A DNA stretch of 64,000 nt from Promethearchaeota archaeon (GTDB lineage: Archaea; Asgardarchaeota; Lokiarchaeia; Sigyniarchaeales; SOKP01), in contig JAEOTA010000012.1 in the NCBI GenBank assembly GCA_016840085.1, positions 96,001 to 160,000 of the forward strand, written 5' to 3'. The notes below the pieces were generated by a model. It did not search any database, was not told where the DNA came from, and was given only the letters and a program-made list of their open reading frames with translations. This document shows, one piece after another, positions 8,689 through 55,213 of this stretch (position 1 is the first letter of the stretch; each line of letters begins with the position of its first letter). The translations under genes were made by a program, and so were the position numbers.

Positions 8689-9592
8689 ACCCCAACTTAT
8701 TTAATAATTCAATATTGGATTTTTAGTAGCTGAGGTATGAGGATGAAAGGATCCAATATTTAGTTTTTGATCTTAGATCTTTAATAGAGTTTTAGACCAT
8801 TTTTAGACTTTAATGTAAAAAATATTACACAATGATATCCTTTTTGACGTGTTTTTGCGTTTTCCTGGCACAAGGCTATAATATAATTCCAACTTTAATA
8901 TTTATTTTTTTAAGAGTAGATTTCGGGATGATTATCCTTGTGAAAAACTTAATAATCCTGAAAAGCTATTTCAGAAAATTAAAGAAATAAATAATTGGTT
9001 TAACTAGCAAGATTAATCCATTAGACTTTTTAAGATACTATAAAATAATCTTTAATTGGTTTAGCGACAACAGACCTCCTAATAATAAGCTATCATACTA
9101 AATCATCTCAACTTATAATAGGGAATGGAATATTTAATGATAGTAAAGTACGTATACCTAAGTTAATTCTCAGAGATCGGTTATTCAATTGGGTCAAAAG
9201 AATCAGTTTTAAATTAAAAGAAGTGCTGGCTTCTTTATATTCAATAATATAGAAATCATCGTAGAATACCTTTTTAAAGAAAAGAATATAAAAAAAGTAG
9301 CAATAATAGAATGGGATTGACACCATGGCACCTTTATTTAAAAAATATGAAGGTTTTTTCCAATTAATTGAATTCTTATGAAATTTCTGTTGAGCAAAAA
9401 TTAGATAATCTTATCGATAACCTTAGAAAGGAAAAGAACTCTTCAAAAATGATAGAAGTTAATGAGAAAGCAACCACAATGATTATAAATATATTCCTGT
9501 CTCACATAATTTTTTATTTATAGATTCTATCATGGTGTTGTATACAACTTCACTTTCATGTAATAGTTCCTCATCTACGTTATTGATTGTAT

Positions 9593-10504
9593 CTATCTTA
9601 TTGATTGTTTAAAAATAGGTTTTAAAACATTAACATAATGGTCTCTTATAGAATATTCAGCGATATTAGTAGCTTCAGAAATAATCCATTGAGCTAAGAC
9701 AGGCTTCTGAAAATATTTTTTAGCCAATAGTTTGTCTGCTAAATAAATTATCCCCCCTGTTAAAATAAAGGGATTTCTACCTCCACGCTGTTTCATAGGT
9801 AACTTTTTTAATATTTCACGACACTGTATAGTCAACTTATTTTGAAATTCTCCTTTTGACCAAAGTACATTTTTCTTTTTTAATCTCTCTTCCAAATCTT
9901 TATGATTTATGACTTGATTAATTAATCTCATGAGATAATCTTCACTTTTATGAGGGAAATTCTCATCTTTAATATGATGTTTATATTCTATTCCATCTCT
10001 TAAGATTAATCTCGGATTAACTCGATGACCATAGTTTTGAAAAGCCTCAGAGATCTCCTTTATTGTAATAGGTGCATTATGATATTCTTTCCTCGCAGCA
10101 TAAAATATACAAAACCCTATTAATGAGATATTATTTACAACCTTAACCTCATTTTTGATTATTTTCCTGTAATAATACGCTGCGTTGTTTCTAATATTTT
10201 TATTGAGATTTAGATATGACGAAATTTTATTTAAAATATTAAAAATTCTGTATTCTGTTTCATGATTTTTAAGCCTTAATAATAGGTCATAATTTTTTTT
10301 TAATCTTCTAAATAATTTTTGTTCATTCGGACGTAAAAGTCTACCGGTTTTATCTTTTAAAAACTTAGTATTTCCATAATCTATATATGAACCTAATCCT
10401 CCAATAAAATCAGTACGCTCCCCTAAAGCTATATATTGTTTGCTTAAATTTCTTTCATTATTCTTATTATTTTCAGTATAAACAAAAGATGATTCTTTAT
10501 AAAA
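9593..10504 (-). pseudogene. tfb: 5'-truncated TFB copy lacking start codon and Zn ribbon
   Basis: Colinear with 54185-55096, no indels, about 41 mismatches in 912 bp by manual count; frame open from FYKESSF to stop; TAA at 10505-10507 immediately upstream. Confidence 0.92.
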
Positions 10505-10600
10505 TTATATTGAACCTATTGATTTGAATCTCTGTATAACTTGTAGGAAAGAAAGAAAACAAGATATTATTAAAAAGTTTAAAAGCTTATTACCTTCGGA

Positions 10601-11203
10601 TTAAAACTTCGCTAATTCTTTGCTTACCTTAAATGAAAAAACGTCATTAACATGGTTTATTAATTCTCTCATAACTCTTTCAAATTCTTTCTTATTTATA
10701 ATTTCTTTATTCTCATCTAAAGATATTAATTTGCAAATTGGATCTAGTCCAATAAGGTATTTATCCAGAATATAGAGTTCTGAAGATCTATACGTTGCTT
10801 TACCCATATCAAGAGGGTGTACATCTTCTTCTTCCTTCTGATTGATCTCAATTCCAATTTTAATCAAAATCTCGGGAAATTTTTGAGATATAAAATGAAT
10901 AAAAGACATTGAACCTGAAAATCTATAATAACCTCTCTTTTTAGTATTCATAAGGTATTTTAGATAACCCTTTACTCTTTTAATAATTTGAATAACTATA
11001 TCTTTTTCATCCCTTTCTTTCTCTTTTCTTTCAATCCCTTTTATAATAAAAGGTAAAATAAGAGCTGTTATAATGCTGAATTGAGTTGTTAGGTTTTGAA
11101 ACAAGGATATAGGAAAAATTATAGATAATATAATTAATATTATTACTATAATAATTAGAGAAAAAACAACCTTATTCTTTAGTAATTCTTTATAGCTTAT
11201 CAT
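10601..11203 (-). CDS. Hypothetical protein with two N-terminal TM helices
   Basis: 200-aa ORF with hydrophobic N-terminus. Confidence 0.7.
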   Translation of the reverse strand: MISYKELLKNKVVFSLIIIVIILIILSIIFPISLFQNLTTQFSIITALILPFIIKGIERKEKERDEKDIVIQIIKRVKGYLKYLMNTKKRGYYRFSGSMSFIHFISQKFPEILIKIGIEINQKEEEDVHPLDMGKATYRSSELYILDKYLIGLDPICKLISLDENKEIINKKEFERVMRELINHVNDVFSFKVSKELAKF

Positions 11204-11442
11204 GTCTTAAATTCCTTATTAAAACTCTTATATGAAGTTTTTCCTCTATAATATCTGCGAACATTCATATGATAGAAAATATTATTACATTCAGAACATC
11301 CTAAGATTTGTATTCTATCACTTTCATCAAAAATTTCAGGTTGTATACCTTCAAAATTAATTTTTATTGCTATTACTTGTTTCTTACATACAGGACATCT
11401 AGCCATCATTCTATATTTATAAAAGCTTATTCTTGAATTCAA
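11200..11442 (-). CDS. Small Zn-ribbon protein
   Basis: CPVC...CSEC; ATGA overlap with the next gene. Confidence 0.65.
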   Translation of the reverse strand: MNSRISFYKYRMMARCPVCKKQVIAIKINFEGIQPEIFDESDRIQILGCSECNNIFYHMNVRRYYRGKTSYKSFNKEFKT

Positions 11443-11513
11443 AATTAATACCTTAATACCTTAATTAATTATTAGATGGTAAAAGCTCTCTTCTTTTCCT
11501 ATATAAGCTTCTA

Positions 11514-11572
11514 GGGTAGCCGATTTTCTGATTCTTTACTTATCACCTGACGGGTTCAGTTCCCGCTACCTG
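11514..11572 (+). ncRNA. tRNA-like element without a D-arm (degenerate tRNA or remnant)
   Basis: GGGTAG/CTACCT acceptor-like pairing, CGGG-TTCAGTT-CCCG T-arm, TGAT/ATCA central stem. Confidence 0.3.
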
Positions 11573-13151: not shown

Positions 13152-13730
13152 TTACCTCTTAAATATATAAAAAAAATTATGGCCTTTAATTTCAATAATT
13201 TGGATTTCAGCTCCATGGAAGATGATGATCTCTTTCTCATCTAACCCGTAAGTAAATTCACAATTTTTTAATAAAGTTAGAGTCCAATTAACATCTCTCT
13301 TAAAAATTGTCCCAGCTATTAGATATTCATTATTTAAATTCATCTCATTATGTGAATGCAAAGCATCCTTACTCCATACCCACAATTCTGGAAAATTTCT
13401 TTGAAACATGAAATATTCATTTTCTCTTAAATCCCTGAGAAAGACTTTTACATTAGGTATATCCAAAAAACTATAAATCTTAAATGGCTCAGGAAAGTAA
13501 TGGTATCTGTCAATTAAAACATTTACTTGTTCTGTAATCTCATCTTCAAGCGTCTTCATAGCTTCAAATTTGGATATTTTTTTAGTATAAACAAGAGCTT
13601 CTACATGGGTCTTGATTTGATCTGGATAAAATTTCTTCCATTCTTTTAAAAATTGAGGTAGATAATCTTTTATCTCTTCTGGATTTTGCACAATTATATC
13701 TAATAATTTTGGATTTTTGTCTTTTACCAT
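13152..13730 (-). CDS. Putative ADP-ribosyltransferase-fold protein (paralog of 55850-56452)
   Basis: FKIY, WVWSKD, DVNWTLTL, YGLDEKEIII (ExE). Confidence 0.45.
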   Translation of the reverse strand: MVKDKNPKLLDIIVQNPEEIKDYLPQFLKEWKKFYPDQIKTHVEALVYTKKISKFEAMKTLEDEITEQVNVLIDRYHYFPEPFKIYSFLDIPNVKVFLRDLRENEYFMFQRNFPELWVWSKDALHSHNEMNLNNEYLIAGTIFKRDVNWTLTLLKNCEFTYGLDEKEIIIFHGAEIQIIEIKGHNFFYIFKR

Positions 13731-14062: not shown

Positions 14063-14605
14063 TTAATCTTTATCTTCTTTTTTTTCAAATAGATCTTTCA
14101 GAAATTTCTTAATTTTTGAAATATTGCAAAAATCTTCAATAATATAATAATCTCCCGCTACAAGATCATCCCCTATTATATTCCACTGCCATTGAATGGC
14201 TTTTCTAATAAATACCTCTGGTGTATAATGAATTTCTTCTGAAATCTCTTTAATCACAGTATGATATTTGTGGCCTATTTTTACAGAGATGTTTTTTATC
14301 TTCATTTCAGCTTTATTTAAGGAATCACATGTATTATTCTCAGAATTATTAAAAATCTCATCAAAACAAAAATAATAATAAGGTAAGAGTTCATAGTCCT
14401 CACTCTCGACTTCAGATTTTAGATCATAAAAATGATAAGATAATAGCTTATTAATTAAAATATCGTAGGAAATTTGGAATCTTTCAATGAATTTGTTTAT
14501 TTTACCGACTAAATTCTCTGGAAATGATATTGTATATTCGATATTTTTATTATTCTCTGTTGAAAGAGAATCATTATAACCGTCAATTTCATTTGGATTT
14601 ATCAT
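14063..14605 (-). CDS. Protein with two RHH-like repeats
   Basis: YTISFPENLVGKINKF and ISVKIGHKYHTVIKEI...PEVFIRKAI. Confidence 0.55.
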   Translation of the reverse strand: MINPNEIDGYNDSLSTENNKNIEYTISFPENLVGKINKFIERFQISYDILINKLLSYHFYDLKSEVESEDYELLPYYYFCFDEIFNNSENNTCDSLNKAEMKIKNISVKIGHKYHTVIKEISEEIHYTPEVFIRKAIQWQWNIIGDDLVAGDYYIIEDFCNISKIKKFLKDLFEKKEDKD

Positions 14606-14816: not shown

Positions 14817-15140
14817 ATGGAAAAAGATTTTGATATAAAACTAAGATTTAAAGCATCCCCAGCTAAATCTGGAGACCAATATCATTTTAATATCCCAGCT
14901 TATTTAATAAGAAATAAAAAAATTAATCCCGATAAAGAATATTGGGTCGATTTTATTGAAAAGACAAAAGATATAAAAAAAGATAATACTCCTATTAGGC
15001 AAGTATTACCATATAAAGCTTCCCCTGCTAAAGGAGGAGGGCAGCAATATCGATTTACTATTCCAACATTCTTGATTAAGAATAATTATTTTGACCCAGA
15101 TAAGAATGTAGAATATTGGGTATACTATTCAGAAGTTTAA
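14817..15140 (+). CDS. Tandem AbrB/SpoVT-like DNA-binding protein
   Basis: Two internal repeats of KASPAKxG.QYxFxIP..LI.N....PDK..EYWV. Confidence 0.7.
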   Translation: MEKDFDIKLRFKASPAKSGDQYHFNIPAYLIRNKKINPDKEYWVDFIEKTKDIKKDNTPIRQVLPYKASPAKGGGQQYRFTIPTFLIKNNYFDPDKNVEYWVYYSEV

Positions 15141-17516: not shown

Positions 17517-19697
17517 TCATTTTCTTGTTGCGCTCTCCCAATCATTCCAAAATCTTTCTAATTTTTGAAGCCCGAATTTACTAATAAAGGAGATTTCATC
17601 AAAAACCTCAACTAACGAGGCTTTTGAATATCTCTCTATCTTTGCCATCATCTCAAAAAATTGTTTATAAATGTTGAGATAGCGCCAAAAAGTTTGCTTG
17701 TCCAATTTTTCATGTTTAGTAAGTTTTTGTATAGCTTTACAATCATAAAGGTTTTCTCCTTTTAATGCGTCCCAATCATCCGTATCAGGATTATATTGAA
17801 AGAGAGTATCAATATCACCAGAGGAGTTGATTTCAGCTACTTGAATGACTTTTCTCTTGCTGGTGTTGGAATCTTTTTTCATCAAAACAATTAAGTCTAA
17901 ATCATTAAAGCATGAAGAATCAATCTTAAAATGGTGTAAAAAGCGATTAATCAGAGATTCGATATTATTACAGTGAATTGTTTGGAATCCTCTTAATCCT
18001 GCTGAAAGACAATGAAACATGGCTTTAGCTTCTTCTTCAGTTAAAATTTCTCCAAGATAAATTATATCAGGAGATCGATGTAATAATTTCTTTATTAGAT
18101 TACTTTTTGAATATTTTATATCTACATCATCGTCTAGTGAATCTACTTTATATTTTAATTGATGTTTGTCTAAATCGTCTTGGTTTGACGATTCGATAGC
18201 ATTTTCTATGTATATTTTTCTAAATTCTTTAGGCGCTATTAAATCCAATGCATTAATTAAAGTCGTTTTCCCAGTATCAGTCTCACCCGTCACAGTAATA
18301 TTATTTCTTTTTAAGATGTTAAAATAGAGAAAAGAGGCAATGAGGGGATTCAAAGTGTTATTCTGAACTAAATCTTGAATAGTAAAAATATTTTTATTAA
18401 GTTTTCTTATATCTAAAGAAAATCCCGATGCATGAATAGGAGCTATATCTACCGCGATTCTGCAAAAGAAAAGGTTATTCTTCATAACAAATTTAATGCT
18501 TGGATTAGAATAGTCTAACCGTTGCCCGCTATAAAAACGGCAAAAAGTTTTTAATCTTTCAATCTCGTTCTCATTAAATCTGATATCTGTACGACACCTA
18601 CCATGTATACGATGATTAATATAGACATATGATATATCAGAATCTAAAAAAATCTCTTCTATGAAGTCATCAATCAAGAAAGGAAATAATTTTGCAAGGT
18701 CTATAGCATCAAAAGTAGCTAATAAACTTATCCTCTCTTTCTCGTCATCAGAGACATGATACTTTCCGCTAATATAATCAATTCCTTCATTTTTATATTT
18801 TTGAATAAGTTCTTCAAAGGTTATTAAACCCTCAATCTTAAATGAATCGATAAGATGATTCTTGACGTCTTTTGCAATTTTTTTAAAGAACTGTTCTTCG
18901 CCTTTAGTCTGAAAAGTGAGATTAACTTCATATAACTTCTCAAATGCATGCGTATCATAAATTCGGATCTTAAATAATTGATGTTCCCCTATTAAATAAT
19001 TATCAATTAATCCAAATCTTTCTTTTGAATGAAGATCCTTTTTTGTCTTCTTTTGTGATTGACTAGAAATATTTTGAGTTGAAAATAACTCTCTATGAAA
19101 TCGTAAATAAGAAGGATATTGATTATGTTTTTTACAGAAGGTTATATATTCATTAATAATTCTTTGTTCTTTTAAGACTCTTAGAAAAGTCGTAAATTTA
19201 GCCTTTAATTCTTTTTGACATGTAAAACAAGCAGCATTATTTACTTCTTTACTCTTTATCAGTTTGTATCTCATTTGAATAAGCTCGAAGAGTCCAATTG
19301 GATCATGAAAATCGATCTTGGCAGGACGTACACCTGAATAAAAATCAGAAAACAGAACACATCCCATATCGTTTTTAATACATCCTTTACTGAAATCGAA
19401 ATCTATGAGCTCAAAAGAATCTTTAATCTGTTTAGTCTTTTTGAAATATTCCAAGAATAACTCAATACTATCTTTCGTTATTGTAAACTTCTCAGTTCCC
19501 AACGATAAAGATTCAAATTTTTTTCCTTTAATCTTATGTAATATCGCTAAGAAACATTGGATACATTTTGTATTTTTTAATATTACCCCTGTATATTTTG
19601 GACAATTCTTACAATCAACTATAACCAATCGTTCTTTTTTACCTTGAAAATTCTCTCTTTCTTGAAATATGACTAAATCTGATGTTTTAAGGGTCAT
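17517..19697 (-). CDS. Type II/IV secretion ATPase (VirB11/CpaF/FlaI family) with Cys-rich N-terminus
   Basis: Walker A GETDTGKT, Asp box IENAIE, Walker B RSPDIIYLGEI, His box FQTIH, SLDIRK. Confidence 0.92.
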   Translation of the reverse strand: MTLKTSDLVIFQERENFQGKKERLVIVDCKNCPKYTGVILKNTKCIQCFLAILHKIKGKKFESLSLGTEKFTITKDSIELFLEYFKKTKQIKDSFELIDFDFSKGCIKNDMGCVLFSDFYSGVRPAKIDFHDPIGLFELIQMRYKLIKSKEVNNAACFTCQKELKAKFTTFLRVLKEQRIINEYITFCKKHNQYPSYLRFHRELFSTQNISSQSQKKTKKDLHSKERFGLIDNYLIGEHQLFKIRIYDTHAFEKLYEVNLTFQTKGEEQFFKKIAKDVKNHLIDSFKIEGLITFEELIQKYKNEGIDYISGKYHVSDDEKERISLLATFDAIDLAKLFPFLIDDFIEEIFLDSDISYVYINHRIHGRCRTDIRFNENEIERLKTFCRFYSGQRLDYSNPSIKFVMKNNLFFCRIAVDIAPIHASGFSLDIRKLNKNIFTIQDLVQNNTLNPLIASFLYFNILKRNNITVTGETDTGKTTLINALDLIAPKEFRKIYIENAIESSNQDDLDKHQLKYKVDSLDDDVDIKYSKSNLIKKLLHRSPDIIYLGEILTEEEAKAMFHCLSAGLRGFQTIHCNNIESLINRFLHHFKIDSSCFNDLDLIVLMKKDSNTSKRKVIQVAEINSSGDIDTLFQYNPDTDDWDALKGENLYDCKAIQKLTKHEKLDKQTFWRYLNIYKQFFEMMAKIERYSKASLVEVFDEISFISKFGLQKLERFWNDWESATRK

Positions 19698-19699
19698 TG

Positions 19700-19963
19700 T
19701 TATCTATCTCCATACATATAATCATATTCTCTTTTTACGGTAGGATCTTTTTCTATAGCAGACTCCATTTTAATCCTCTGAAGCATTTTGGGAGCATCAG
19801 CTAGAGATTCTAAGATATAAGTCTGTTTTTCTATTTCTGAAAATTTCATCTTATAACCACATTTGATACATTTAATTTTTTCAATCCTTTTTAGAACATA
19901 GCGCCAAGTTTTACACTTTGGACATTGGAAAAAAAATGCAGGTGTTTTAAACATTATTTTCAC
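19700..19963 (-). CDS. Small Zn-ribbon protein (DUF1922-like)
   Basis: CPKC...KCIKCG. Confidence 0.7.
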   Translation of the reverse strand: MKIMFKTPAFFFQCPKCKTWRYVLKRIEKIKCIKCGYKMKFSEIEKQTYILESLADAPKMLQRIKMESAIEKDPTVKREYDYMYGDR

Positions 19964-19972
19964 ACCCCATAA

Positions 19973-21091: not shown

Positions 21092-21134
21092 AATTTAGAG
21101 TGTCTCATTTAATAATTTTAAACTCCATGGAAAT

Positions 21135-21428
21135 TTACGCATAAAAACACAAGATAAATAACATGATTGCCAAATATATACCTACAAAAATATAAATAAA
21201 TCTAGCAAAACCGAACAAAAGTTGAAAAAACAAGAGGTTTTCTATACCTAAGAAAAGTAATGATTTATATAACGTGTTCAATAAAACTAAGAGAGGAATT
21301 AGAACAATAAGATAAAGTCCGAAAGAAAAAAACATAATTAATTGATCTGTTGCGATTACATTATACGCAAAGAGAAGTATATAAAAACCAAGTATTATTA
21401 ATATTTCAAGTATTAATATTTCGAGCAA
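21135..21428 (-). CDS. Small 3-TM membrane protein
   Basis: Almost entirely hydrophobic 97 aa; overlaps the upstream gene. Confidence 0.7.
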   Translation of the reverse strand: MLEILILEILIILGFYILLFAYNVIATDQLIMFFSFGLYLIVLIPLLVLLNTLYKSLLFLGIENLLFFQLLFGFARFIYIFVGIYLAIMLFILCFYA

Positions 21429-22176: not shown

Positions 22177-22177
22177 C

Positions 22178-22552: not shown

Positions 22553-22559
22553 TTATTTA

Positions 22560-23659: not shown

Positions 23660-23730
23660 TTTAATATACCCTTATAATTCTTTATCTACTTTTGTTGTTT
23701 TGAAATAATCTTAAATACACCTTGAAATTT

Positions 23731-42775: not shown

Positions 42776-42830
42776 ACCATATTTTACGCGATTTCCTATT
42801 TAAACCCCTAAATTTTAAGAGATGTAGATC

Positions 42831-43388: not shown

Positions 43389-43555
43389 TATATATTATTC
43401 TTTATTTATAGAATTCAAAAGAACTAATAAAAACAAACCATTTTTTTAGTTTTTTATTGAATTCATATGTTTTATATCAGAAAAGAAAAAACCGTGCTTA
43501 AAGACCCCTATATTTAAGTTCATATTCGATCTGTTAAGGACTTGTTTTATGAATT

Positions 43556-43822
43556 ATGAATAATAGGACTTTTAATTCTATTTTTAAATCTGAAATTGAT
43601 AATAAAGTGGGATATTTAAATTCCTTAATTATTCAGTTCAAAAAATATAATTTTTCTATATTTGAACAATGTAGGAAAGCGAAAATTAGCAAAAGTGGAA
43701 TTGCTCGTATTTTAAATATATGTATATAGACACTATACCGACGATTATATGATCATGAAAATGAATATCAAGAAATTGAACAGAACTTAATAGAAAGTGA
43801 AGAAAATGAGCAAAAAATATAG
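43556..43822 (+). pseudogene. HTH protein with in-frame TAG (43727-43729)
   Basis: KSGIARILNICI*TLYRRL: stop falls inside the HTH. Confidence 0.55.
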
Positions 43823-43989
43823 TTTTAATATTTATCATGAGGAGCGGCTAAAATGAATTGGGAATATGATTGGTGGTGGTTCCTTCAATGCTATGCAATA
43901 ACCATCTTTAGACCTTTTTATTATATGGAAGAGATTAAAAAGATTAAAAGAAGTAAAAAGCATAAATTAGATATTATTCACAAAGGTGA

Positions 43990-44457
43990 ATAGAAGTAGC
44001 TGAAGAATTTAAAGTAATACTTGAAAGTCTTAAGAAAGAGCCTGTAGAGAATAAAGTAAATCAGCTTTTTGACGTTATCGAAGGGATGATGCACCTATTC
44101 CTAAAAGTTGTTGAAATGGTAGAGACAAACATTATTAGGTTAGATTCGAAGATAGATGAAAAAATTAAGTTCACAGACACTCAGATTAGGAGACTTGAAT
44201 TGATGGTTAAGGAAGGAGTCAAATCCGAGATTACCAAGAAGACAGAGTCAATAGTAAAGGAAATAAAGCCTGAGATCAGAGATATTGAGCCAAAAATAAA
44301 TCTTGATCAACTTAAACCTCCACCCTCTGTAATTCATGCAAATTCCTCTATGGTTCAACCAAAAGCCTCTACGAATCTCGTAAGCGGTCATGCTTCTATT
44401 CGAGGAGCATTAATAGGAGAATTAAAAGAACTGTTTAAATCGAGAAGAAAAGAATAA
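43990..44457 (+). CDS. Coiled-coil / Pro-rich / C-terminal amphipathic helix protein; start probably upstream of 44086
   Basis: Frame open from 43990 after GGTGA; LKPPPS; RGALIGELKELFKSRR. Confidence 0.65.
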   Translation: MEVAEEFKVILESLKKEPVENKVNQLFDVIEGMMHLFLKVVEMVETNIIRLDSKIDEKIKFTDTQIRRLELMVKEGVKSEITKKTESIVKEIKPEIRDIEPKINLDQLKPPPSVIHANSSMVQPKASTNLVSGHASIRGALIGELKELFKSRRKE

Positions 44458-45883
44458 TATCAAATCTTTTAAACCTTTCACTCAATATCCCTTTCGAGCT
44501 GTATTATATAGTTGTTTATTTACTCGTTAATAAAATTATAAGATTAATACTAAGCATTATAAAATATCTTGAAAATATTTCTCTTAGTATGTTTAAAATT
44601 AATTTAGAAATAGAATTTATGAGAAGCCCTAAAGATTTAAAAAAAATAACTTTAGGCTTTGATGACCAAAAAGAATTAACTAAATATGTAGTAAAAAGAG
44701 AAAAGCGATTGGATGAATGGTTATAGGGCTAACCGATATGCACACAATCACCTTTTTCTTAATTACTATATTACTTTTTTTTTTAAAAATGTTTTTATCA
44801 ATCTATTTCAATCCATTAATATGCATTAAAATCGATATTTTACGGGTTTGTATATCATTTAAGATAAAATAATATATTTAGATGATAAAAAACTGCTATA
44901 GACCTCCTTTTTATATCCTTAAGAAATGATGTTACATTTTAATGAGTATTAAGGAAGATGAAGCTCAAATAAAAAAAGAGCTCATTGAGCATCTGAAGAA
45001 ATATATAAAGCAAGAAGTTAAGGCTCAACTTGAAGAGCTCAAAAACCGATACAGAAAAGAGCTTTCTTATTTTAGTTTTCTTTAGTTTTTGTTTTCTGCT
45101 AATGATTATAACTCCAAATCTCTGTTATATAACTAATTACACCGATTCCTATAAAAGACATTCCTAACTTGTTGATATCCATAATAAGCATTGTTCGTAA
45201 TTCGAGCGATAGAACCTATACTGATTACTTTTCCTACATCTACCACTTTTTCAAATTCACCTTATTATTTCTTTATAATATATTATAAATATTTATGATG
45301 ATCTATAACTCTTTGCATCTGAAAATATAGAATATCACAATGATAAATATATCATAAATATCTTTTATATGTTTATGAAATACCATAATGATATTTGGAT
45401 ATAAAAAGAAATAAATTGAAAATACATATAACAGACCATAAAAAAAGTTCCCCTATTGTCTTTCATGTTTTATGTTATAATAATAAAACAAGCAAAGATT
45501 ACTGATTTTTATGATAGCACACTCAATTCTATCGGTCTACACCCTCTTTTTTTTAGAAAATTCTTAAACAGGTGGCGTAAAAGTTTCTTAATGAATTAAA
45601 AGAAGATAATGGTGATCTAAATGATTCGAAAATTACTTATGATGATTGATAATTGCTACTATTCATCATCCAAAAAAGTTTGAATCTGTTTTGGTGTTAA
45701 GATGTCATACATTTCAGGATATAGTTCTTTTATTTTTTCAAGAAAGAAACGAAATAAAAAAAGAAAAAGAACCTTATTAAGAAAGAGAAAACTTGAAAAT
45801 GTGTGTAATTTAAATATCAAAATTCGTATTCTATTTCACATCTAAGACCTAATTTCTAAAACACACTAATATAATGCATACCT

Positions 45884-46110
45884 TAGGGGGTTTATAATTT
45901 GCCCCCTACTCTTTCTTAAGTATGGTCTTTTTGGTATCCAATAAGCAAAATGCACATAAAAATCGTGTTCTTTAAATATTAAATTTCGCATCCTATATCA
46001 GTTTCAACTTGGTTTATTTCATTTTTAGAACCTTTTAGACTGGCATCTAAATGTTGAATATATACAAATCTCAGGGGGGTTTTCAATCATTTCCCCCCTT
46101 ACTCTTTCTT
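45884..46110. repeat. Two related G-tract/C-tract hairpins, each followed by ACTCTTTCTT
   Basis: TAGGGGG-11nt-CCCCCTA (45884-45908) and AGGGGGG-13nt-CCCCCCT (46073-46099). Confidence 0.7.
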
Positions 46111-46200
46111 TAATACATATCTCGATATTCTTGAGGTTTAAAATATTAAGTTTAAATTATATTTCACGAATAAAAATATCTACATGTATATTATCTAACT

Positions 46201-46515
46201 ATGCTTCTCGCTCAGAAAATCTGTATTTTTCCTTCAAATGACCAACAAAAAGTATTATGGGGTTTATCCGAGAAGTGTAGATTGCTCTATAATTTTTCTC
46301 TTCAAAATAGAAAGCTAAACTGGATTCAAGAGCAAGTGAAACCTAAGAAAGAAAGAAAATATATAACCTATAATGAGCAGAGCGCAACATTGTCATTATT
46401 GAAACAAAAATATCCGCAATATAAGTGGGAATATTCAAAAGTTCTTCAGCAAGTATTAAAGAAATTAAATGAAATATTATTCAAACTTTATGAATCAGAT
46501 TTAAGTAAGGAGTAG
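46201..46515 (+). pseudogene. tnpB: IS200/IS605 TnpB N-terminal fragment
   Basis: KICIFPSNDQQKVL...CRLLYNFSL...YSKVLQQVLKKL; RuvC and Zn finger absent. Confidence 0.85.
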
Positions 46516-46523
46516 ATAAAAAC

Positions 46524-46961
46524 ATGAGTGAAGAAATAAAGCAAATTACTAAGAAATTTTTTCTCAATCTTTCTGAAAAAGAAAAGTGGAACTTCATTGA
46601 AACAATGAAGAGGATTATAGAAGATTTGGAAATAAGAGCTAACAAAAACTGTGAAGAGTGTGAAAAGACAAATCTATCTACACACGATATTAACATCGAT
46701 CTTTTCTTTGAAGATTGGCGAGAGTGTTCTAACCACTGCGATAACTGTAGTAGAGAAGATCAGAAACGTATGTGTGATCTTCAATTCCAATTATTCAATC
46801 ATTTAGCTAATTCCTTTTTAGAATTACACAGGAGACATAATGTTCTTACTAAAATAGTGCTTAAAAAAGATGAGAGAGGCTCAGAATTATTAGAAGAATT
46901 TAAGAAGTTGCATGAAAAAAAGAAAAAATCTGATAAATTAGCAGATGACCTTTATCAATAA
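46524..46961 (+). CDS. Cys-rich helical hypothetical protein
   Basis: CEEC, CSNHCDNC, coiled-coil character. Confidence 0.7.
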   Translation: MSEEIKQITKKFFLNLSEKEKWNFIETMKRIIEDLEIRANKNCEECEKTNLSTHDINIDLFFEDWRECSNHCDNCSREDQKRMCDLQFQLFNHLANSFLELHRRHNVLTKIVLKKDERGSELLEEFKKLHEKKKKSDKLADDLYQ

Positions 46962-47078
46962 GTCTATTGAACTGAAAAATTGCTTTATCTTCTTACCTAA
47001 TTTGGTGAATACTTCCATTTCTCCATGAGTTCATGTAGAATCTTTGATTTATCAATGAAAATAGTAGTACACAGGATA

Positions 47079-47837
47079 TTAGTCATTTTTCTTCGTGAGA
47101 TTTTCAAAAAGCCTGTCCTGGATTTTGTTATCTATTTCTCGTGATAAATTATCTAGTATGTCTTCCGGCGCATTGGGTAGATATTCAAATAATTCCTTAT
47201 GAATTATTGAATTGAATCCATCAACTAAATCATCAATAATAAGATGTCTTTGTAAGCAATTTGTTCTATGTGATTGAATTAAACTTTCATTTAAGTTTTT
47301 AAGCCAATATTTTCCATTTTTCTCTAAAATTTGAATTATTTCTCTAGATTTTGCTGCGTTAAAATGCTTAAATTCAGTTTCATATTTTACTAACTTTTCT
47401 TCGAAATATTTCATAATACCCGCCTTCCTTCTTGAACTCAAATCTATATTGGAATTGAGAAAGATGATAATCATGTATTGGTCAAACAAAAAATGTATTT
47501 GAACTTTAATATTGGATCCCCCGATTTCTAAATTTTCTAAGTTTTGAATATTAATTTCTCCCGAAAAAGATTTAAAAGCACTTAAATAACCTGAAATCAA
47601 ATTGATGTCTATTTCTATTTGATTATCATTTTCAGATTTCAAATAAGATTTAATTGGCCCATAACTACTTTCTTCTAAAGAGTATTCAAAAACCATTAAT
47701 GCATTTCCGTATATATCCGCCAATATAATACCAATCACTGGCGGAGTTTTATTAAAATCATATGAGAAGTATGCGATCTCATTTATTTTCTCATGTATGA
47801 CATTAACATCATATTGAACTTTATTATAGGTTTTCAT
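47079..47837 (-). CDS. Longin/roadblock-like domain protein
   Basis: IGIILADIYGNAL...LISGYLSAFKSFSGEI pattern typical of Asgard longin-like domains. Confidence 0.6.
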   Translation of the reverse strand: MKTYNKVQYDVNVIHEKINEIAYFSYDFNKTPPVIGIILADIYGNALMVFEYSLEESSYGPIKSYLKSENDNQIEIDINLISGYLSAFKSFSGEINIQNLENLEIGGSNIKVQIHFLFDQYMIIIFLNSNIDLSSRRKAGIMKYFEEKLVKYETEFKHFNAAKSREIIQILEKNGKYWLKNLNESLIQSHRTNCLQRHLIIDDLVDGFNSIIHKELFEYLPNAPEDILDNLSREIDNKIQDRLFENLTKKND

Positions 47838-48258
47838 AAACTAAGTGATCTGAAATAATTTAAAATTTGTATTTCATATATTTTCTCAATAATTATAAAC
47901 ATAAAAGAGGGTGCCGGTTTTAACAAGAGGAGGATTTTGCCTTTATATAGGGCGCCGACAAAAACAACCCAGCAATTAGAAATCCAATTTACGGCTTACT
48001 ACTTATTTTTTAATATATGAGTTCAAAAAGATATACCAAATTTAATTACTCTTTCAAATGAATTGGAATACTCATTTCTCTTTTAGGGCATTCTAGAATC
48101 AAACATTCAAGGCAAGTCCAAAAGGGTTTCATTTATTTGGTGATAATACAAATTTCTATAAAAGGATGTTCTAGAGGCCTCAACCGATCAAGAAGTAACA
48201 GATACCATTCTTAGATTACTAAAAAATAGAATTATTAAAAAAGAGTTTGAAGTTAAAT

Positions 48259-48963
48259 TTATATTAAAGTCTTTAATATTTTTATTTTATTCTCTGCCTT
48301 CTCATCGTACGGATCCATTTTGATAATAGTATCATAACAACCAAAAGCTTTTTTAAAATGTTCCAATTCAATATATATTTTACCCAGCTTATTTAATAGA
48401 ATCTTATCATCTAAGAAAATATCTACTGCTTCTTTTAGAATTTTGATGGCATACTTTAAATCTCCCAATTTCTCATAGCATTTTACTAAGTTAAAGTAAG
48501 AATCGAAATCAAACATATCAACTGACAATGCTGCTTCATAATATTTAATCGCAATCTGATACTCATATAAATTCATATAGCAATTACCTAAATTAAAAAG
48601 GGCAAAAGCGTTTAGTGGATCCATTTTTATTACCCTTTCAAAACACTTGATAGCTTCATTATATTCTTCCAATCTAAAATAAAGCGTTCCCAAATAAAAC
48701 CAGGTATCTAAAAATTGAGGTTTAATTTCTATACATTTTTTCCAATATTTAATTGCTTTTTTATTTACTCCAATTGTTGCGTAAATTACTCCCAAATTAA
48801 ATAAAACTCTAAGATCTTGAGGGTCTATCTGTAAAGTCTCTTTATATTTTTTGATAGCAAATCCATAATCTTCTATATCAACACACAAATCCCCCATTTT
48901 CATTAAATCTTTGATTTTTAACCAATCTTCTTTCTCTTTTTTTTTTTCATCTATTTCTGTCAT
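48259..48963 (-). CDS. TPR repeat protein
   Basis: About six 34-aa repeats (FNLG..Y.....Y..AI......). Confidence 0.93.
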   Translation of the reverse strand: MTEIDEKKKEKEDWLKIKDLMKMGDLCVDIEDYGFAIKKYKETLQIDPQDLRVLFNLGVIYATIGVNKKAIKYWKKCIEIKPQFLDTWFYLGTLYFRLEEYNEAIKCFERVIKMDPLNAFALFNLGNCYMNLYEYQIAIKYYEAALSVDMFDFDSYFNLVKCYEKLGDLKYAIKILKEAVDIFLDDKILLNKLGKIYIELEHFKKAFGCYDTIIKMDPYDEKAENKIKILKTLI

Positions 48964-49296
48964 TTTTTACCACCTCGCCTTTTTTAATAAAAAAAATTTA
49001 TTATAGTTGAAATGGAATTTATTGATAAGTCTATTTAAAGAAAAAATGGTGTTATGAACGAATTTACTAAATTGGGTTTATTTAAAGTAAAATACTCTAT
49101 CTCCTTTTTTTAAAGAAATTTTGATCATTCTTATGAGGAAGATGTCTATTTAGCCAATTTCTTAAATATAGACGAAAAAACTGAGGATTTAGACCAATGG
49201 AATTAAGCTTGATATTTAAAAAATCAGAAATTTTTGTTTGTATTATCCTAAATTTAGTTTTTTCATATTTCCTGATGGTAAGGAGATATTTTAAAA

Positions 49297-50202
49297 TTAT
49301 TTATCTGAAAATTCAATAGTATATCCTTTTTTAGGTTCCAGAGATTTTATCATATCATTTAATCCTAAGTTTGAAAAGATTTCTTGTGTAATGAATGTAA
49401 AATATTTAATCATATTTTCTTTTAAATTTGCAATGTAAATCTTATCGTTAAATAATTCTTACCCTGAATCATCTATTATACATTTCATCTTTTTAATATA
49501 GGTATCTGAGATTTTCCCACCATTATGAACAATGATATTTCGTCTATAATAACTTTCTCTTAGATCATTCCATTCTTTAAATTTTTCTGTAATTTCAATT
49601 TGAAAAAATTTTTTTAAGAACTTTTCTGCAAAATCATCAATATCCGAATAAAATATATCATTCATCTTTTTATAAGCTAAATATCTGTTGAGATCTTCCA
49701 TTTTAGAGAAATCTATGATTTCCTGATAACTAACCAGATGTTTACTCTTCAACTTTTCAGGTTTAAAGCAAAAAACTTCAGTAAAGAAATCTTTATTAAA
49801 TGCTTCAAATTGACAAATTAAATAGATATGTACCATATTGTAAAACCATTTTTTATATCGTTTTTTATTGAAAATTCGACTAATTTGCATTATTAGCTCA
49901 GAAAAAAGTTCTCCAGATTTTTTACTAAACTTTGTTTTAGAACCTATCTGAGTTTTATTTTCATTTTTTTCAATAAAGTTATCTATTAAACTCACTAAGT
50001 GTTTCAACAAATCTATAAAATCTCCTTTCTCCTCATCTTTTTTGACAAGATCACTAATAGGAAGATCTTCAAGCGAATCTTCGATATCCAGCTCGATAAA
50101 ATTTGAAACATCTTTAAAAAAGTTAAATAAATTTAAGATATCATCTCTATATTTATTAAATATACTGATCAATGGTTGAATAAAATTAGTATCTGAATTC
50201 AT
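49297..50202 (-). pseudogene. HEPN-family protein with premature TAA at 49459-49461
   Basis: LICQFEAF, RRNIIVHNGG; frame stays open for 53 codons after the stop. Confidence 0.65.
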
Positions 50203-50619
50203 CTTAATACAATATAAACATTTAAGACTATAATATATATAAAATATTTTTCAAGAATTTAATTAACAACAATAGATATGGATAATTCTTTAATCATAAT
50301 ACAAATTTAATTATTATTATATTTTGGGTAGAACCATCTATTTTTGGATAAATTATTTTATTTGAATAGATTTATTTACATCATAGTTCTTTTCTTTTGA
50401 AACTAATTAATTTTTTATATTTATAGATAGTGGATTTTAGGATTAACAATTAATATTATAGAAAGCTGAATATAAAAATGAAATACCTACATATGAAATT
50501 GAAATGGAACTACTGATAGAGGGGTTTTATCAGTATCCAAATTTTAAAAAAGTCGTCAAGGAGAAAAGTATAGAAGCAGATAAAATAAGAAAAAAAAAGA
50601 ATCTATAAAGGCTTTCAAG

Positions 50620-50745
50620 ATAAAAAGCCACTCCTGCTAAAGCAGATGGTTAGGAATACTGGTTGTTTTGTCAATATTCTTTATTAAGAATAAATATTCT
50701 GTTCCAACAAAATATATAGAATAGTGGGTATATATTTTACAACTG
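50620..50745 (+). pseudogene. Second degraded copy of the AbrB-like gene at 14817-15140
   Basis: KATPAKADG*EYW...FIKNKY...E*WVY. Confidence 0.55.
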
Positions 50746-51078
50746 CTTATTCAAAAATTTTTCCTATAAAATAATCCAATAAAATAAAACTATTTTTGCC
50801 ATAATGATTTTCCAAAACCATTTGTTTTCAATTGATACCATCTAAAATTACTGCCAAATCTGTGATACAGAAAATTAATGAATCCAAATATTTATTATCT
50901 GTATTTTTTATGATTATTTTTCTGAATATGCCCTTAAAAATCAAAAAAATATATGAAATTATAGTATCACCTTTACTGGATAGATCTCACTATGTAAAGG
51001 TATACTTTTATTTATGATACGATTTGTTGATATTGAGTTAAAATGAATAATTTTGTTCAAATATAAATCATAAATAAG

Positions 51079-53490
51079 ATGTCGTTTCTAAAACAATTAA
51101 TAGCATATTCAAAAGAAGAGTTTAATGGAAATGAATTAAAAACTTTAAAAGAATGTTTCAATCATTTCCTAAATGCCATATCAGATTGCCATAAGACATT
51201 TATTATTAAAAATACAATTGAAATACCAAAACAAGTATTTAAAGACGGAGAACTATTTAAAGGGTTTAAATGTCTTGAAAAAAAAGGTCTAACTCAAGAT
51301 AAATACCTATTACCAAAAGCTTATTTATATTATGAAACCCTTATACAAAAATCACATAGATACTCCAATTATATATGCCAATTTCTTGAATATTTCAAGA
51401 AGAACTTGCGAGGTATAATTAGTGGAATGATTTATTATAACAATGCGTTTATGGAACAGTTTAAAAGAAAGGGATTAAATGACAATGAGATTGTATTTTT
51501 ACTATTCCTATTAAATGATTTAAGATATATTAAATTATCTTGGGGAAGCCCAAATCCTCCTCATCCAGATGACCCCTTATATGGGAATTTAAAAGTAAAT
51601 GAAGTTACTGAAAAAGGATTTTCACTTATAAATAATATATGTATTATTAAAAAGCATAATGATGTAATTCGCTTTATAAAAAGAATAGTAAATGATTATT
51701 TAGACGAGAATTATTTTGGAATTCATTTGAAAATCTTGGCAAATAAAATAGAACAAAATAAAAATAAGTGGCTAATTAATTACATAAGAATGGATTTGAT
51801 AAAAGAAAAGAGTGAAGGATATTCTAACGAAGCATACTCAACAGATAAAAAAGCAATTTTTTTTCAGGATATAGTAGAAATTGATAATATTTTTGCCAAA
51901 TTTTCAAATAATGGATATATTTATGAAAATGAAGGACACCAATTCTTTTTTAATGAAAATTTATCAATTCCAGGAGATTATGAAACTTTTAAAAGTAATT
52001 TTAACACAAATTTTTATCAATATTCTTATATCAAGTGTAATAAAGAAGTTAATCTAATATTTCAAGATGCTCTCTATTCTCCTAATTTGGATTCTTACTA
52101 TCAAAAAGTTGTCGATAAAAAATATTTTTACAATGAAAATCCTTTAAATGGCATGACTATAATAAAAAGATTTATTGGATTTTCTTTCCCTATGGATAAT
52201 ATTCCAAGTCCACTTATATTAATTGTATTTCCAATCAACTCATTTATATTTAAGCTGAATAAGGATGTATTTAATATACATCAAGATTTGGAAGTAAATT
52301 GGGACGTAAAAGGAAGGATTAAAGACTTAATTTATTTAACTTATAAAAAGGGGAAGAGTGATCCTATAAGAATTAAGAATATTATCGCAAAAATAAAGAT
52401 CGAGGATAACTTATCAGGAATTTTGCAATTTGAAGTGTCTTGGTTAGGAACTGATGATTTATTACCAAATGGGTGTATATTATATAAAAAGGAAATCTCT
52501 TATATGAAGAATAATCAAATAAAAAGAGAGAAAGCAGATGATAAAGAATCCAATGAGGAATTTTTTAAATATTTAGAAGAGTGTCTTTCTGAACCCACTC
52601 CAAAGCGTGCTGAACATGGTAAGTATGATACAGGAATCCTAATAATTTCTCAAAAATTAAATAGTGAAACTGAAAACTTTTCTATTGTCGATTTTGGATG
52701 TGGAAATGGCAGACTTATATATGGCCTAAACAATTTAGACCCAAAGGTGCTCGAAAAATTGACCTATTTTGGAATAGATATCAATCAAAATTATCTTGAT
52801 GAATGCAAAAAGATAGCAACAGAATTACAATTTAAAAAAAAAATAAAGGAATTTCATATTTTAACTCCAGATAAATTTTTCGAATTAGAAATTGAAGTAG
52901 AATATATTTTTTTAATTCATGTTATACATGAATTAAAGGTTTGTGATCTCCTTGGAATTATGTATGATCTTTTATACAGATTAAAAAATGGAGGTAATGT
53001 AATGATACATGAAATGGTAGAACTTATAGAAGGAGAAAAGGATTTCATTTCTTATGATAAGGATGACTATTATGAACTCTTTGATAATAAAGGATTAACT
53101 ATCCATTGTTATTCATACTCATCTAGAAGGATGCATAATCCGTTGATAACAGTTAATTTAATTAAAAAGGAAGATATTACAGAGATATCAAAATTTATTA
53201 ATTCAATAAAATCAGCACTAACAAATAAAAGACAAAGAATCAAGAATGAAATAAAAAGTCTTCAAGAAAAAACTAATATTCTAAAAACAAAAGAATACGC
53301 ACGATTAATGGCTTTATTTAATAACCTTATATTTCAATTAGACGAATATGATGAAATAATTCAAGGGAAAGGAATTCCTATTCATTCAAAAAAATGTCCT
53401 AAATGTGGATTCAATGAAATGTTTATTTTACGTGATACAAATACTTGGAAAATGAGATGTGGAAAGTGTAGTTTGATTGTCTCAATTTAG
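51079..53490 (+). CDS. Large protein with C-terminal class I SAM-dependent methyltransferase and terminal Zn ribbon
   Basis: IVDFGCGNGRL, YFGIDIN, HVIHE, LKNGG; CPKC...CGKC. Confidence 0.8.
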   Translation: MSFLKQLIAYSKEEFNGNELKTLKECFNHFLNAISDCHKTFIIKNTIEIPKQVFKDGELFKGFKCLEKKGLTQDKYLLPKAYLYYETLIQKSHRYSNYICQFLEYFKKNLRGIISGMIYYNNAFMEQFKRKGLNDNEIVFLLFLLNDLRYIKLSWGSPNPPHPDDPLYGNLKVNEVTEKGFSLINNICIIKKHNDVIRFIKRIVNDYLDENYFGIHLKILANKIEQNKNKWLINYIRMDLIKEKSEGYSNEAYSTDKKAIFFQDIVEIDNIFAKFSNNGYIYENEGHQFFFNENLSIPGDYETFKSNFNTNFYQYSYIKCNKEVNLIFQDALYSPNLDSYYQKVVDKKYFYNENPLNGMTIIKRFIGFSFPMDNIPSPLILIVFPINSFIFKLNKDVFNIHQDLEVNWDVKGRIKDLIYLTYKKGKSDPIRIKNIIAKIKIEDNLSGILQFEVSWLGTDDLLPNGCILYKKEISYMKNNQIKREKADDKESNEEFFKYLEECLSEPTPKRAEHGKYDTGILIISQKLNSETENFSIVDFGCGNGRLIYGLNNLDPKVLEKLTYFGIDINQNYLDECKKIATELQFKKKIKEFHILTPDKFFELEIEVEYIFLIHVIHELKVCDLLGIMYDLLYRLKNGGNVMIHEMVELIEGEKDFISYDKDDYYELFDNKGLTIHCYSYSSRRMHNPLITVNLIKKEDITEISKFINSIKSALTNKRQRIKNEIKSLQEKTNILKTKEYARLMALFNNLIFQLDEYDEIIQGKGIPIHSKKCPKCGFNEMFILRDTNTWKMRCGKCSLIVSI

Positions 53491-53821
53491 TTGTAATATT
53501 TTTAATTAATTAGTACCAGACTTATCCCTAATTATTTAAATTTTCCTTCTTGTTAAGAGTATTCAAAGTAGGTCATTTTATAGTTTTTTATCAAACCGAA
53601 GTTTAGAATTATTTGCTATTAAAACATAGAGAAATGATAAAACAACGTTTCGATACTATTTTTTTCAAGATAATTAATAGTAGAATTCATTTTCTCATTA
53701 TTCAATCAATTTTTAAAAATTGATATAAAAATATAGGAATTAAATATAAGTTAGGAAATCTTTATTTAATAGGAGTATTCTATATAAAGAACTCCTAATC
53801 ATAAAAGTGAGATGAAAAATA

Positions 53822-54088
53822 ATGGTTATAATTGAACATACAGAAAATGAATGGCGAGATTTATGTAAAGCTTTAATTGAAAAAGTACGTAGTATATCTA
53901 TAGGTTTATTTGAATGGACAAATAAACCTGATGAGGATTCGGGGAAAAAAATACATCATATTAAGGAATATTTTGTGGAAAAAATTCTTTTTGGTCTTGA
54001 GAAAAATAGTATATTTTCAGGTATAAATTTCATAAGTATTAAACCACCATATGAAGATATTATCGAGAAGTTATTTAATAACTTGTGA
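53822..54088 (+). CDS. Hypothetical protein
   Basis: 88-aa ORF; upstream TATATAAA enclosed by a TAGGAGT/ACTCCTA inverted repeat (53770-53797). Confidence 0.55.
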   Translation: MVIIEHTENEWRDLCKALIEKVRSISIGLFEWTNKPDEDSGKKIHHIKEYFVEKILFGLEKNSIFSGINFISIKPPYEDIIEKLFNNL

Positions 54089-54120
54089 ATAAATTTAAAA
54101 TCTTATTAAAAATATGCTAA

Positions 54121-54178
54121 AAAAAAGTTGTCAGTGAACTAATAAGTTGTTTTTGCGTCATTAAAAAGTTGTCGTACA
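54121..54178 (-). repeat. Three AAGTTGT repeats ending in ACA, like a transposon end
   Basis: Repeats at 54125, 54144, 54166; minus strand reads TGTACGACAACTT, starting 6 bp after the TFB stop. Confidence 0.45.
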
Positions 54179-54184
54179 ATGTAT

Positions 54185-55213
54185 CTACCTTATTGATTGT
54201 CTAAAAATAGGTTTTAAAACATTAACATAATGGTCTCTTATAGAATATTCAGCGATATTAGTAGCTTCAGAAATAATCCATTGAGCTAAGACAGGTTTTT
54301 GAAAAAATTTTTTAGCTAATAGTTTGTCTGCCAAATAAATAATCCCCCCTGTTAAAATAAAGGGATTTCTACCTCCACGCTGTTTCATAGGTAACTTTTT
54401 TAATATCTCACGACTCTGTATAGTCAATTTATTCTGAAATTCTCTTTTTGACCAAAGTACATATTTCTTTTTCAATCTCTCTTCCAAATCTTTATGATTT
54501 ATGACTTGATTAATTAATCTCATGAGATAATCTTCACTTTTATGAGGGAAATTCTCATCTTTAATATGATGTTTATATTCTATTCCATCTCTTAAAATTA
54601 ATCTAGGATTAACTCGATGACCGTAGTTTTGAAAAGCCTCAGAGATCTCCTTTATTGTAATAGGTGCATTATGATATTCTTTCCTCGCAGCATAAAATAT
54701 ACAAAACCCTATTAATGAGATGTTATTTACAACCTTAACCTCATTCTTGATTATTTTCCTATAATAATACGCTGCATTGTCTCTAATATTTTTATTGAGA
54801 TTTAGATATGACGAAATTTTATTTAAAATATTGAAAATCCTGTATTCTGTTTCATGATTTTTAAGCCTTAATAATTGATCATAATTTTTTTTTAATCTTC
54901 TAAATAACTTTTGCTCATTCGGACGTAAAAGTCTACCAGCTTTATCTTTTAAAAACATAGAATTTTCGTAATCTATATATGAACCTAATCCCCCAATAAA
55001 ATCAATACGCTCCCCTAAAGCTATATATTGTTTGCTTAAAGTTCTTTCATTATTCTTATTATTTTCAGTAGAAACAAAAGATGATTCCTTAAAAAAAATA
55101 TCAATCACTAATCCACATTTAGTACAAATCTTTTCAAAGCTATTATGGATTAAATTTCCACCACATTCAGGACAAGATTCATTTTCATTATTATTTATTT
55201 TGTCGGTTACCAT
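54185..55213 (-). CDS. tfb: Transcription initiation factor TFB (TFIIB) paralog, full length
   Basis: CPECGG...CTKCGLVI Zn ribbon, GGLGSYI linker, two cyclin repeats with GRNP. Confidence 0.95.
   Translation of the reverse strand: MVTDKINNNENESCPECGGNLIHNSFEKICTKCGLVIDIFFKESSFVSTENNKNNERTLSKQYIALGERIDFIGGLGSYIDYENSMFLKDKAGRLLRPNEQKLFRRLKKNYDQLLRLKNHETEYRIFNILNKISSYLNLNKNIRDNAAYYYRKIIKNEVKVVNNISLIGFCIFYAARKEYHNAPITIKEISEAFQNYGHRVNPRLILRDGIEYKHHIKDENFPHKSEDYLMRLINQVINHKDLEERLKKKYVLWSKREFQNKLTIQSREILKKLPMKQRGGRNPFILTGGIIYLADKLLAKKFFQKPVLAQWIISEATNIAEYSIRDHYVNVLKPIFRQSIR

Follow-up and report, generated by a model that had tools for sequence, protein, structure and literature searches.

A Cdc6- and Tad-carrying unit between two alleles of a divergent TFB-like gene, nested in a larger ICE-like island of a Lokiarchaeial genome

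How does a 44.6-kb unit with its own cdc6 gene and a secretion-type operon come to lie between two copies of a gene resembling transcription factor B (TFB), with no integrase recognised beside it? The locus lies in a window of 64,000 nucleotides (nt), the whole stretch analysed, at C69:96001-160000 of host genome G000, a metagenome-assembled genome (MAG) of 4.68 Mb in 89 contigs from marine sediment. Window coordinates above 64,000 carry the same numbering on along C69. Homologues of the window proteins are mostly labelled Promethearchaeota or Lokiarchaeota. The unit is a real, foreign, Lokiarchaeial variant of archaeal elements of the integrative and conjugative (ICE-like) type. It is read here, with a probability of about 0.58, as a partly decayed member of a family of large Lokiarchaeial ICE-like islands, inserted one-sidedly through a homologous anchor and, with less support, at some sites by homing.

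The direct repeat consists of positions 9588-10504 and 54180-55096, 917 bp each, identical at 876 of 917 positions (95.5%), gapless and 44,592 bp apart; the 0.92-kb repeat bracketing the segment had been described correctly in an earlier, sequence-only reading. The left copy (9588-10504, minus strand) is a 5'-truncated TFB-like remnant holding codons 40-342 in an open frame, without start or Zn ribbon. The right copy (54180-55096) lies inside a whole TFB-like gene of 342 amino acids (aa) with a complete frame (54180-55213, minus strand). The two share an identical stretch of 40 codons and differ by 26 synonymous and 15 non-synonymous changes, with a synonymous divergence (dS) of 0.165 and a dN/dS of 0.13. 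They are therefore two alleles that diverged while functional, under purifying selection, and a fresh target-site duplication is ruled out by these changes. GC content and GC skew give no mark at the repeat boundaries. The gene is a divergent TFB paralogue outside the canonical basal TFB family, not the basal transcription factor it had been taken for: the protein scores 53 bits against PRK00423 (cut-off 384) and is about 25% identical to the canonical TFBs of the genome. The gene occurs in 102 of the 135 genomes of the family, nearly always singly. In a tree the flanking pair is the sister of the host's own core clade.

Four TFB-like loci lie within 52 kb. The third (33497-34531, plus strand) is the divergent gene already noted about 0.7 kb 3' of cdc6; it is an open frame, 59% identical, with no ATG and a likely start codon ATA at 33497. 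The fourth is a scar of 65 nt (3389-3453, minus strand), which matches the right allele at 51 of 52 positions and contains a tandem duplication of 8 nt. It sits downstream of a gene for a 464-aa protein, a place occupied by a whole TFB-like gene in sister island L215.

Assembly support was taken from contigs of four sequencing runs, which may be source data. The junctions at 2300, 9588 and 10504 are all crossed, with zero differences, in several of the four runs. One contig of 43,136 nt starts at 11096, and both repeat alleles are present at about equal depth. Spanned junctions and equal allele depth argue against a mis-join, and the island is not an evident assembly join. That an assembly or binning artefact fused two strains is extremely improbable on this evidence, even for a MAG with 7.6% contamination and a repeat that short contigs do not phase. 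Contig depth in run X2 is 21.1 in the unit interior and 20.3 in the flank and gives no sign of amplification. Among the joints and loose ends listed, none falls at 2300 or 10504; contigs are blind to rare excision. Terminal overlap, as in a circular form, is absent from two island-only contigs, which are short-read contigs only.

Synteny with the core genome of relatives, a doubt raised with the earlier reading, is ruled out. The core copies lie separately on contig C81 (L059:800-20000), in a locus of linked genes conserved across the order: roadblock, GTPase, TFB-like, cdc6, helix-turn-helix (HTH), prepilin peptidase, TadC-like, pilin, TadA, rpl3/4/23 and a 373-aa gene. This locus is single-copy in most of the genus and kept in complete genomes of another family. 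Window genes are paralogues of its genes at 31-79%, and the unit is patchy. The results support island DNA that is foreign to the core genome of this Asgard (Promethearchaeota) archaeon and patchy in its distribution. In G023 the pilus genes have no place in the core locus and are carried by an island instead.

Overlapping gene sets are found in islands of G008, G012, G023, G083, G124 and G151 and at loci L079 and L215. Their gene content comprises a module for Cdc6/AbrB, another for the Tad pilus, a VirB4-like pump and TFB-like genes, and most of these have paralogues in a single ancient core locus. G124:C15 and the unit with its flank have about 19 gene families in common, including the order HTH, 168-aa gene, AbrB, cdc6; no VirB4-like gene is found within that contig. 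Gene order varies between sister islands. Seven TadA and five Cdc6 proteins from islands branch apart from the genus core clades (for Cdc6 in a quick tree only), and the TFB-like pair is sister to the host core, so the island pilus and initiator genes are old island lineages and the TFB-like genes were acquired repeatedly from hosts. Family DNA moved recently, with blocks at 87-96% aa in G012 and a block at 95-99% nt in G067; the whole unit is not covered by them. Single-protein scans of viral and genome contigs gave no match. Sister island L079 has Arf-like GTPases and roadblock genes; a protein on its contig is labelled Patescibacteria, and the contig is probably mis-binned. Locus L213 (G094:C121) is a contig of viral or plasmid character, on which TFB-like and TFB genes stand in tandem next to a PCNA-like gene.

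Island-family genes flank the repeat on both sides, so the 44.6-kb unit is nested in a larger island; it is not the whole element, as had been proposed, and island DNA goes on beyond both repeat copies. The island family has a patchy spread, a hybrid outer junction and, at several genes, one geometry: whole gene, island, 5'-truncated 3' remnant. The terminal block of the inserted unit (10503-11542) is joined to TFB codon 39/40 at 2-6 nt of microhomology. Homologues of this block (window 72.7-73.7 kb; G067:C145) run into a 221-aa gene, not TFB, and G067 has the island DNA of window 70.4-74.7 kb at 95-99% identity, but next to other core genes. Copies that have lost their 5' part and keep the 3' part also bracket two sister cdc6 islands, one of 34 kb in a GTPase-like gene (G008:C82) and one of 37 kb in a 137-aa gene (G023:C7). 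Remnants in the host genome number 22 of the 3' kind against 7 of the 5' kind. Same-contig 3' remnants lie downstream and on the same strand in 8 of 9 cases, around unrelated cargo, which can be as ordinary as ABC transporters. Displaced 3' remnants at 70-90% identity, with 2-16 kb of cargo, are seen for AhcY, GluRS, MetK and other core genes (G000 C19, C47, C40, C56, C85, C8/C66). For SMC a displaced 75-aa 3' remnant is found at the same codon in two genomes (L144:2898-16623 on G000 C85; G008:C82), and the whole copy is adjoined by a nuclease-tipped gene.

The long repeat probably marks one insertion event, at the pair of whole gene and remnant, as had been suggested. The TFB-like gene was probably a landing site once and not by design; it is no dedicated target, as no second codon-40 break exists among the 135 genomes and sister islands split other genes. 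No integrase or relaxase had been recognised before, and none was found here: PF00589 (integrase) has no match in the assembled island, the outer island holding an unassembled gap; PF00239 (serine recombinase) has none in the genome; relaxase PF03432 was not found. Tyrosine recombinase matches lie on other contigs of the genome only, and there are no tRNA targets. The 464-aa island-family protein (3770-5164, minus strand) matches PF13495 with two integrase-type SAM-like binding repeats. It has no recognisable catalytic domain and no usable Atlas match; its homologues occur only in related islands (L079, L215, G124), and the true integrases P0124/P0125 match it in the repeats only. A 52-nt piece was considered as an att core beside this gene and rejected, since the protein has no catalytic domain and the site is that of the whole TFB-like gene in the sister island. 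The 1393-aa protein of C4 was rejected as an integrase, no such domain being present.

These results bear on an active self-replicating, self-transmissible element that hits TFB genes site-specifically through an unrecognised recombinase. Intact cdc6, hairpin and ATPase motifs and the recurrence of TFB-like fragments in islands speak for it. It is very improbable, given a codon-40 break that is unique, sister islands at other genes, 917 bp at 95.5% that are unlike an att site, the absence of any recombinase found and, weakly, the even contig depth. It is also improbable, though less so, that no discrete mobile unit exists and that a recombination hot spot has piled up pieces of related islands, the repeat being one of several TFB-like remnants. 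The clustering of TFB-like loci, broken core-gene copies further along the contig, differing gene orders and low coding density would agree with a hot spot; against it, the unit holds one complete module set, partly collinear with G124:C15, and its size and end geometry match two sister islands.

The preferred reading is one-sided, homology-anchored insertion. Incoming DNA would recombine in a gene that donor and recipient both possess and be anchored there, the donor 3' part of that gene and everything downstream would be copied in, and at the far end a microhomology join would connect it to the 3' part cut off in the recipient; no integrase would be needed. Here the shared gene would be the TFB-like gene of an older resident island, which would make the unit nested. 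Remnants, microhomology join and absence of an integrase would all be explained in one step. Transfer by Tad/VirB4 and replication from cdc6 are predicted from gene content only.

The outer island starts at window 2298, within a split, locally recoded core gene, and measures at least 98 kb. This gene, for a 297-aa winged-helix protein (1935-2828, plus strand), is a hybrid: against the closest intact relative (G024) its 5' part is 87.5% identical in aa and its 3' half 77%. Anchor polarity is seen here, native 5' part followed by foreign replacement 3' half. The native 3' half (88%) is on contig C4, ahead of the gene that follows it in relatives; if the C69 end joins the C4 start, the outer island would exceed 104 kb. 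A recoded patch at the break (2298-2327, plus strand), where S-Y-I-V-T replaces x-W-I-V-T with shared synonymous changes, is a candidate nuclease-resistant site. It is present in 3/3 island-bearing intact copies (G000, G008, G115) and in 0/16 other alleles. The gene is broken at the same codon in all four carriers (G000, G008, G067, G115; two genera), and 4/4 genomes encode, at most 1.7 kb from the remnant, a large protein whose tip is 87-92% identical. The nuclease tip (residues 690-1393 of the 1393-aa C4 protein) is partly like WhiA and the LAGLIDADG protein I-DmoI in fold (E 1e-4 to 1e-3) and ends in a PD-(D/E)xK-type motif, with weak Cas4 and phage exonuclease matches at the C-terminus. 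The same break beside a LAGLIDADG/Cas4-like protein in every carrier suggests homing. Recoded patch and shared break are what homing would leave where the island's allele is resistant, with cleavage as the presumed initiating step. As a less supported addition to the mechanism, the island-encoded LAGLIDADG/Cas4-like protein may make the break at certain sites, the outer junction among them, and the island's own recoded allele may be resistant to this protein.

A broader scheme is tentative and rather doubtful as a whole: Lokiarchaeial conjugative islands, integrase-free and driven by homing, would move DNA by Tad/VirB4 into a neighbouring cell together with a polymorphic nuclease-tipped protein, this nuclease would break a conserved protein gene, and repair would copy in the donor's recoded tail and up to 100 kb. 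If true, the same route would account for many duplicated gene tails and for extra copies of Cdc6, TFB, roadblock and small GTPase genes.

Several points weigh against the preferred reading. A single crossover followed by deletion fits the unit nearly as well: a circular Cdc6 plasmid or ICE with a whole TFB-like gene would have entered the resident 95%-identical allele by one homologous crossover, and a later microhomology deletion or insertion would have removed the first 39 codons of the left copy. Paralogous genes of one island family (192 aa, 13152-13730, minus strand; 200 aa, 55850-56452; 52% identical) stand upstream of both copies in the same orientation and fit this course equally well; the family is the usual upstream neighbour of island TFB-like genes, including that of L215. 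The identical 40-codon stretch could host the crossover, and the TFB-like pair is 95% alike against 52-82% for other paralogue pairs between the two units. The course is nonetheless unlikely: it needs a second event, and it leaves the 5'-truncated remnants at sister islands, around small cargo and at many other genes unexplained. For homology-anchored insertion itself, the TFB-like pair has no uninterrupted allele closer than 80% by which native and donor sequence could be told apart, and at G008:C82 and SMC the two were not distinguished. The link of C69 to C4 rests on the split 297-aa gene, not on the assembly. The nuclease-tip model is of low confidence (a pLDDT, the predicted local accuracy score, of 54), its LAGLIDADG motifs are without catalytic aspartates, and the unit itself encodes no nuclease tip. 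Prepilin peptidase PF01478 has no match in the genome, and sister islands have one; the core gene (L059:10309-10976) is frameshifted at a long T run, by assembly error or phase variation. The unit itself seems to be in partial decay; it has no prepilin peptidase, its internal TFB-like gene is without ATG, and a 10-kb stretch (36.4-47 kb) is 58% coding.

Further observations concern the nuclease-tipped proteins. In G067 (L063, L064) the native site is retained in the 5' half of the 297-aa gene as far as the contig end, despite remnant and nuclease gene; the alleles may be a mixture of empty and filled ones, or the left end may be a different one. Large multi-copy proteins (L060:7-4188 on G000 C4; L143, L144, L146, L147, L148) have a conserved acidic/helical N-terminus, 70-95% identical, and variable C-termini: HNH, LAGLIDADG-like with PD-(D/E)xK, or a treble-clef zinc finger. 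They are often encoded after a VirB4/HerA-like ATPase and may act as polymorphic toxins or as homing nucleases. In G075:C27 a core gene is split by a version of the system with two genes in 7 kb.

The secretion-type operon of about 12 kb that had been reported is present as a run at 17517-29502 with TadA, VirB4/HerA-like ATPase, pilin-like and TadC-like genes. The TadA/CpaF/FlaI-family secretion ATPase (17517-19697, minus strand; 726 aa) matches PF00437 (E 5e-17), is 46% identical to the core copy and groups outside the core clade of the genus. A 372-aa protein (19973-21091, minus strand), with no family match and no usable Atlas match, is a paralogue of a core-locus gene and occurs in most sister islands. 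An acidic 231-aa protein (22964-23659, minus strand), assigned by position and composition, is encoded directly after the pump ATPase, the place taken elsewhere by the acidic N-termini of nuclease-tipped proteins. It has no nuclease tip and no sequence match to those N-termini after masking. The membrane-anchored VirB4/HerA-like pump ATPase (23731-26355, minus strand; 874 aa) has intact Walker A/B motifs and arginine finger; Walker motifs are present in both ATPases and Cdc6. Its model (pLDDT 80) has TrwK/VirB4 as best Foldseek match (E 7e-16, about 770 columns), the only family aligning over residues 201-866. With the ATPase domain alone HerA, TrwB and DndH tie, and VirB4 is not separable. 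The family is patchy (52/154 genomes of the order) and without a counterpart in the core locus. One pump ATPase is encoded in the unit; the outer island enters an unassembled module whose other copies have a related ATPase. A leaderless pilin-like open reading frame (ORF) of 54 aa (27745-27909, minus strand) resembles core and sister-island pilin-like genes at the N-terminus and has no profile match. A polytopic membrane protein (27976-29502, minus strand; 508 aa) is 39% identical to the product of the core-locus gene that adjoins those for TadA and pilin. By context and this homology it is a putative TadC-type platform; no Pfam T2SSF match was obtained. TrbL/VirB6 (PF04610) was not found, and several small membrane ORFs could not be placed in any family.

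The cdc6 gene (31530-32786, plus strand), reported earlier, encodes an Orc1/Cdc6 protein of 418 aa that passes the TIGR02928 cut-off and has lid and winged-helix domains. It is 44% identical to the core copy and 51% to the G124 island copy, and a quick tree places it outside the core clade. Of the origin-like region described with it, there is a G/C hairpin (31435-31465), an origin element or an mRNA leader, but only one weak word like an origin recognition box (ORB); repeated ORBs were not found near cdc6. A comparable hairpin precedes 6/8 island cdc6 genes and 0/11 core cdc6 genes. HTH, 168-aa and AbrB-like genes (29972-31102) stand before cdc6 in the same order as in G124:C15. An RHH-like (ribbon-helix-helix) regulator (14063-14605) matches the Arc-like phrog_582 (E 1.6e-4), and an AbrB-like regulator (14817-15140), seen by eye, has a homologue in G008:C68. 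The many RHH/AbrB regulators of the earlier reading come to about five candidates, with weak profile matches or recognised by eye only.

Cargo at 34879-53490 includes TPR, transglutaminase, methyltransferase, a TnpB fragment, several island-family genes and two proteins with HEPN-like RxxxxH motifs, seen by eye. No capsid gene was recognised in the unit. Window 9043-9495 has short pieces at 89-92% on four other contigs and may be the remnant of an insertion sequence or a miniature inverted-repeat transposable element. The outer island continues at 55850-63134 with the 200-aa paralogue and a five-gene block. This block (57399-63134), with an SF1 helicase, is 87-96% identical in aa in island G012:C16; it is a candidate defence system, moved recently. 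At window 63634-76863 (L057) the outer island duplicates core genes at 73-89%: roadblock (split), GTPase and a second type of Orc1. A membrane protein (L058:15424-16845) runs off the C69 end, is 93% identical in nt to the C20 end (with L141:8703-12488) and is homologous to a 1261-aa protein, without Pfam match, that precedes a HerA-like gene in G151.

Such a combination of genes is already known. New here are the mode of insertion, integrase-free and splitting a gene, and the signature of homing in the island around the unit. No paper on Lokiarchaeial islands of this kind was found in a literature search, and Asgard gene flow of conjugation type is barely described. The outer junction provides a testable set of candidate nuclease, native site and recoded site. 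Searches for an integrase with att sites would overlook such elements, and island paralogues of core genes can pass for contamination in MAGs.

Known Asgard elements share mobile DNA of Asgard hosts, large proteins at ends and TFB cargo (aloposons, PMC8813620; Atabeyarchaeia ICE and plasmids, PMC11529989; JinchiV1, PMC13700489). Aloposons have proteins of 3,000-6,000 aa in tandem, a ParA-like gene and tRNA sites; here there is no tRNA, and the largest window ORF is 874 aa. The Atabeyarchaeia paper mentions no VirB4. The nearest gene content is that of thaumarchaeal ICEs, which carry TFIIB in all cases, Cdc6/Orc1 in two, VirB4, TadC, FlaI/PilT ATPase and pilins (Krupovic et al. 2019, PMC6563490), so that the combination of cdc6, TFB, Tad and VirB4 is not novel, contrary to the sequence-only reading. 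They are large, integrated, without relaxase and non-syntenic in their modules. Among integrated thaumarchaeal elements, some have the 3' part of a protein gene as their site, and att repeats are short (median 17 bp; PMC6563490). The unit likewise has a VirB4-like ATPase, FlaI/TadA ATPase, TadC-like platform, pilin-like ORF, TFIIB homologue and Cdc6. It differs by a 917-bp repeat of diverged alleles with no integrase or short att found, by one pump ATPase with no VirB6 found, no ParB recognised and no prepilin peptidase, and by pilus, Cdc6 and TFB-like genes that are paralogues of a host core locus. No regulators are commoner beside archaeal type IV pilus loci than TFIIB homologues (Makarova et al. 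2016, PMC4858521); the C81 core locus is of the same kind, and that survey was without Lokiarchaeia or mobile Cdc6 copies. Homology-facilitated illegitimate recombination, discussed for Vibrio type VI secretion system arrays (PMC5361080) and described as rare in bacteria, resembles the proposed insertion in its one homologous anchor, one illegitimate end and displaced 3' remnants downstream; here the inserts are of 2-100 kb and at many archaeal core genes. The outer island resembles intronless homing by free-standing endonucleases, as with the seg/mob genes of phage T4 (PMC2988022), in that the nuclease is encoded far from its site in a conserved gene and the site is co-converted on spread. 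It differs in acting on a cellular chromosome with very large cargo and in a target that is duplicated rather than simply converted, and its LAGLIDADG-like domains share one protein with a Cas4-like nuclease and with a conserved N-terminus whose coding sequence follows that of a VirB4-like pump.

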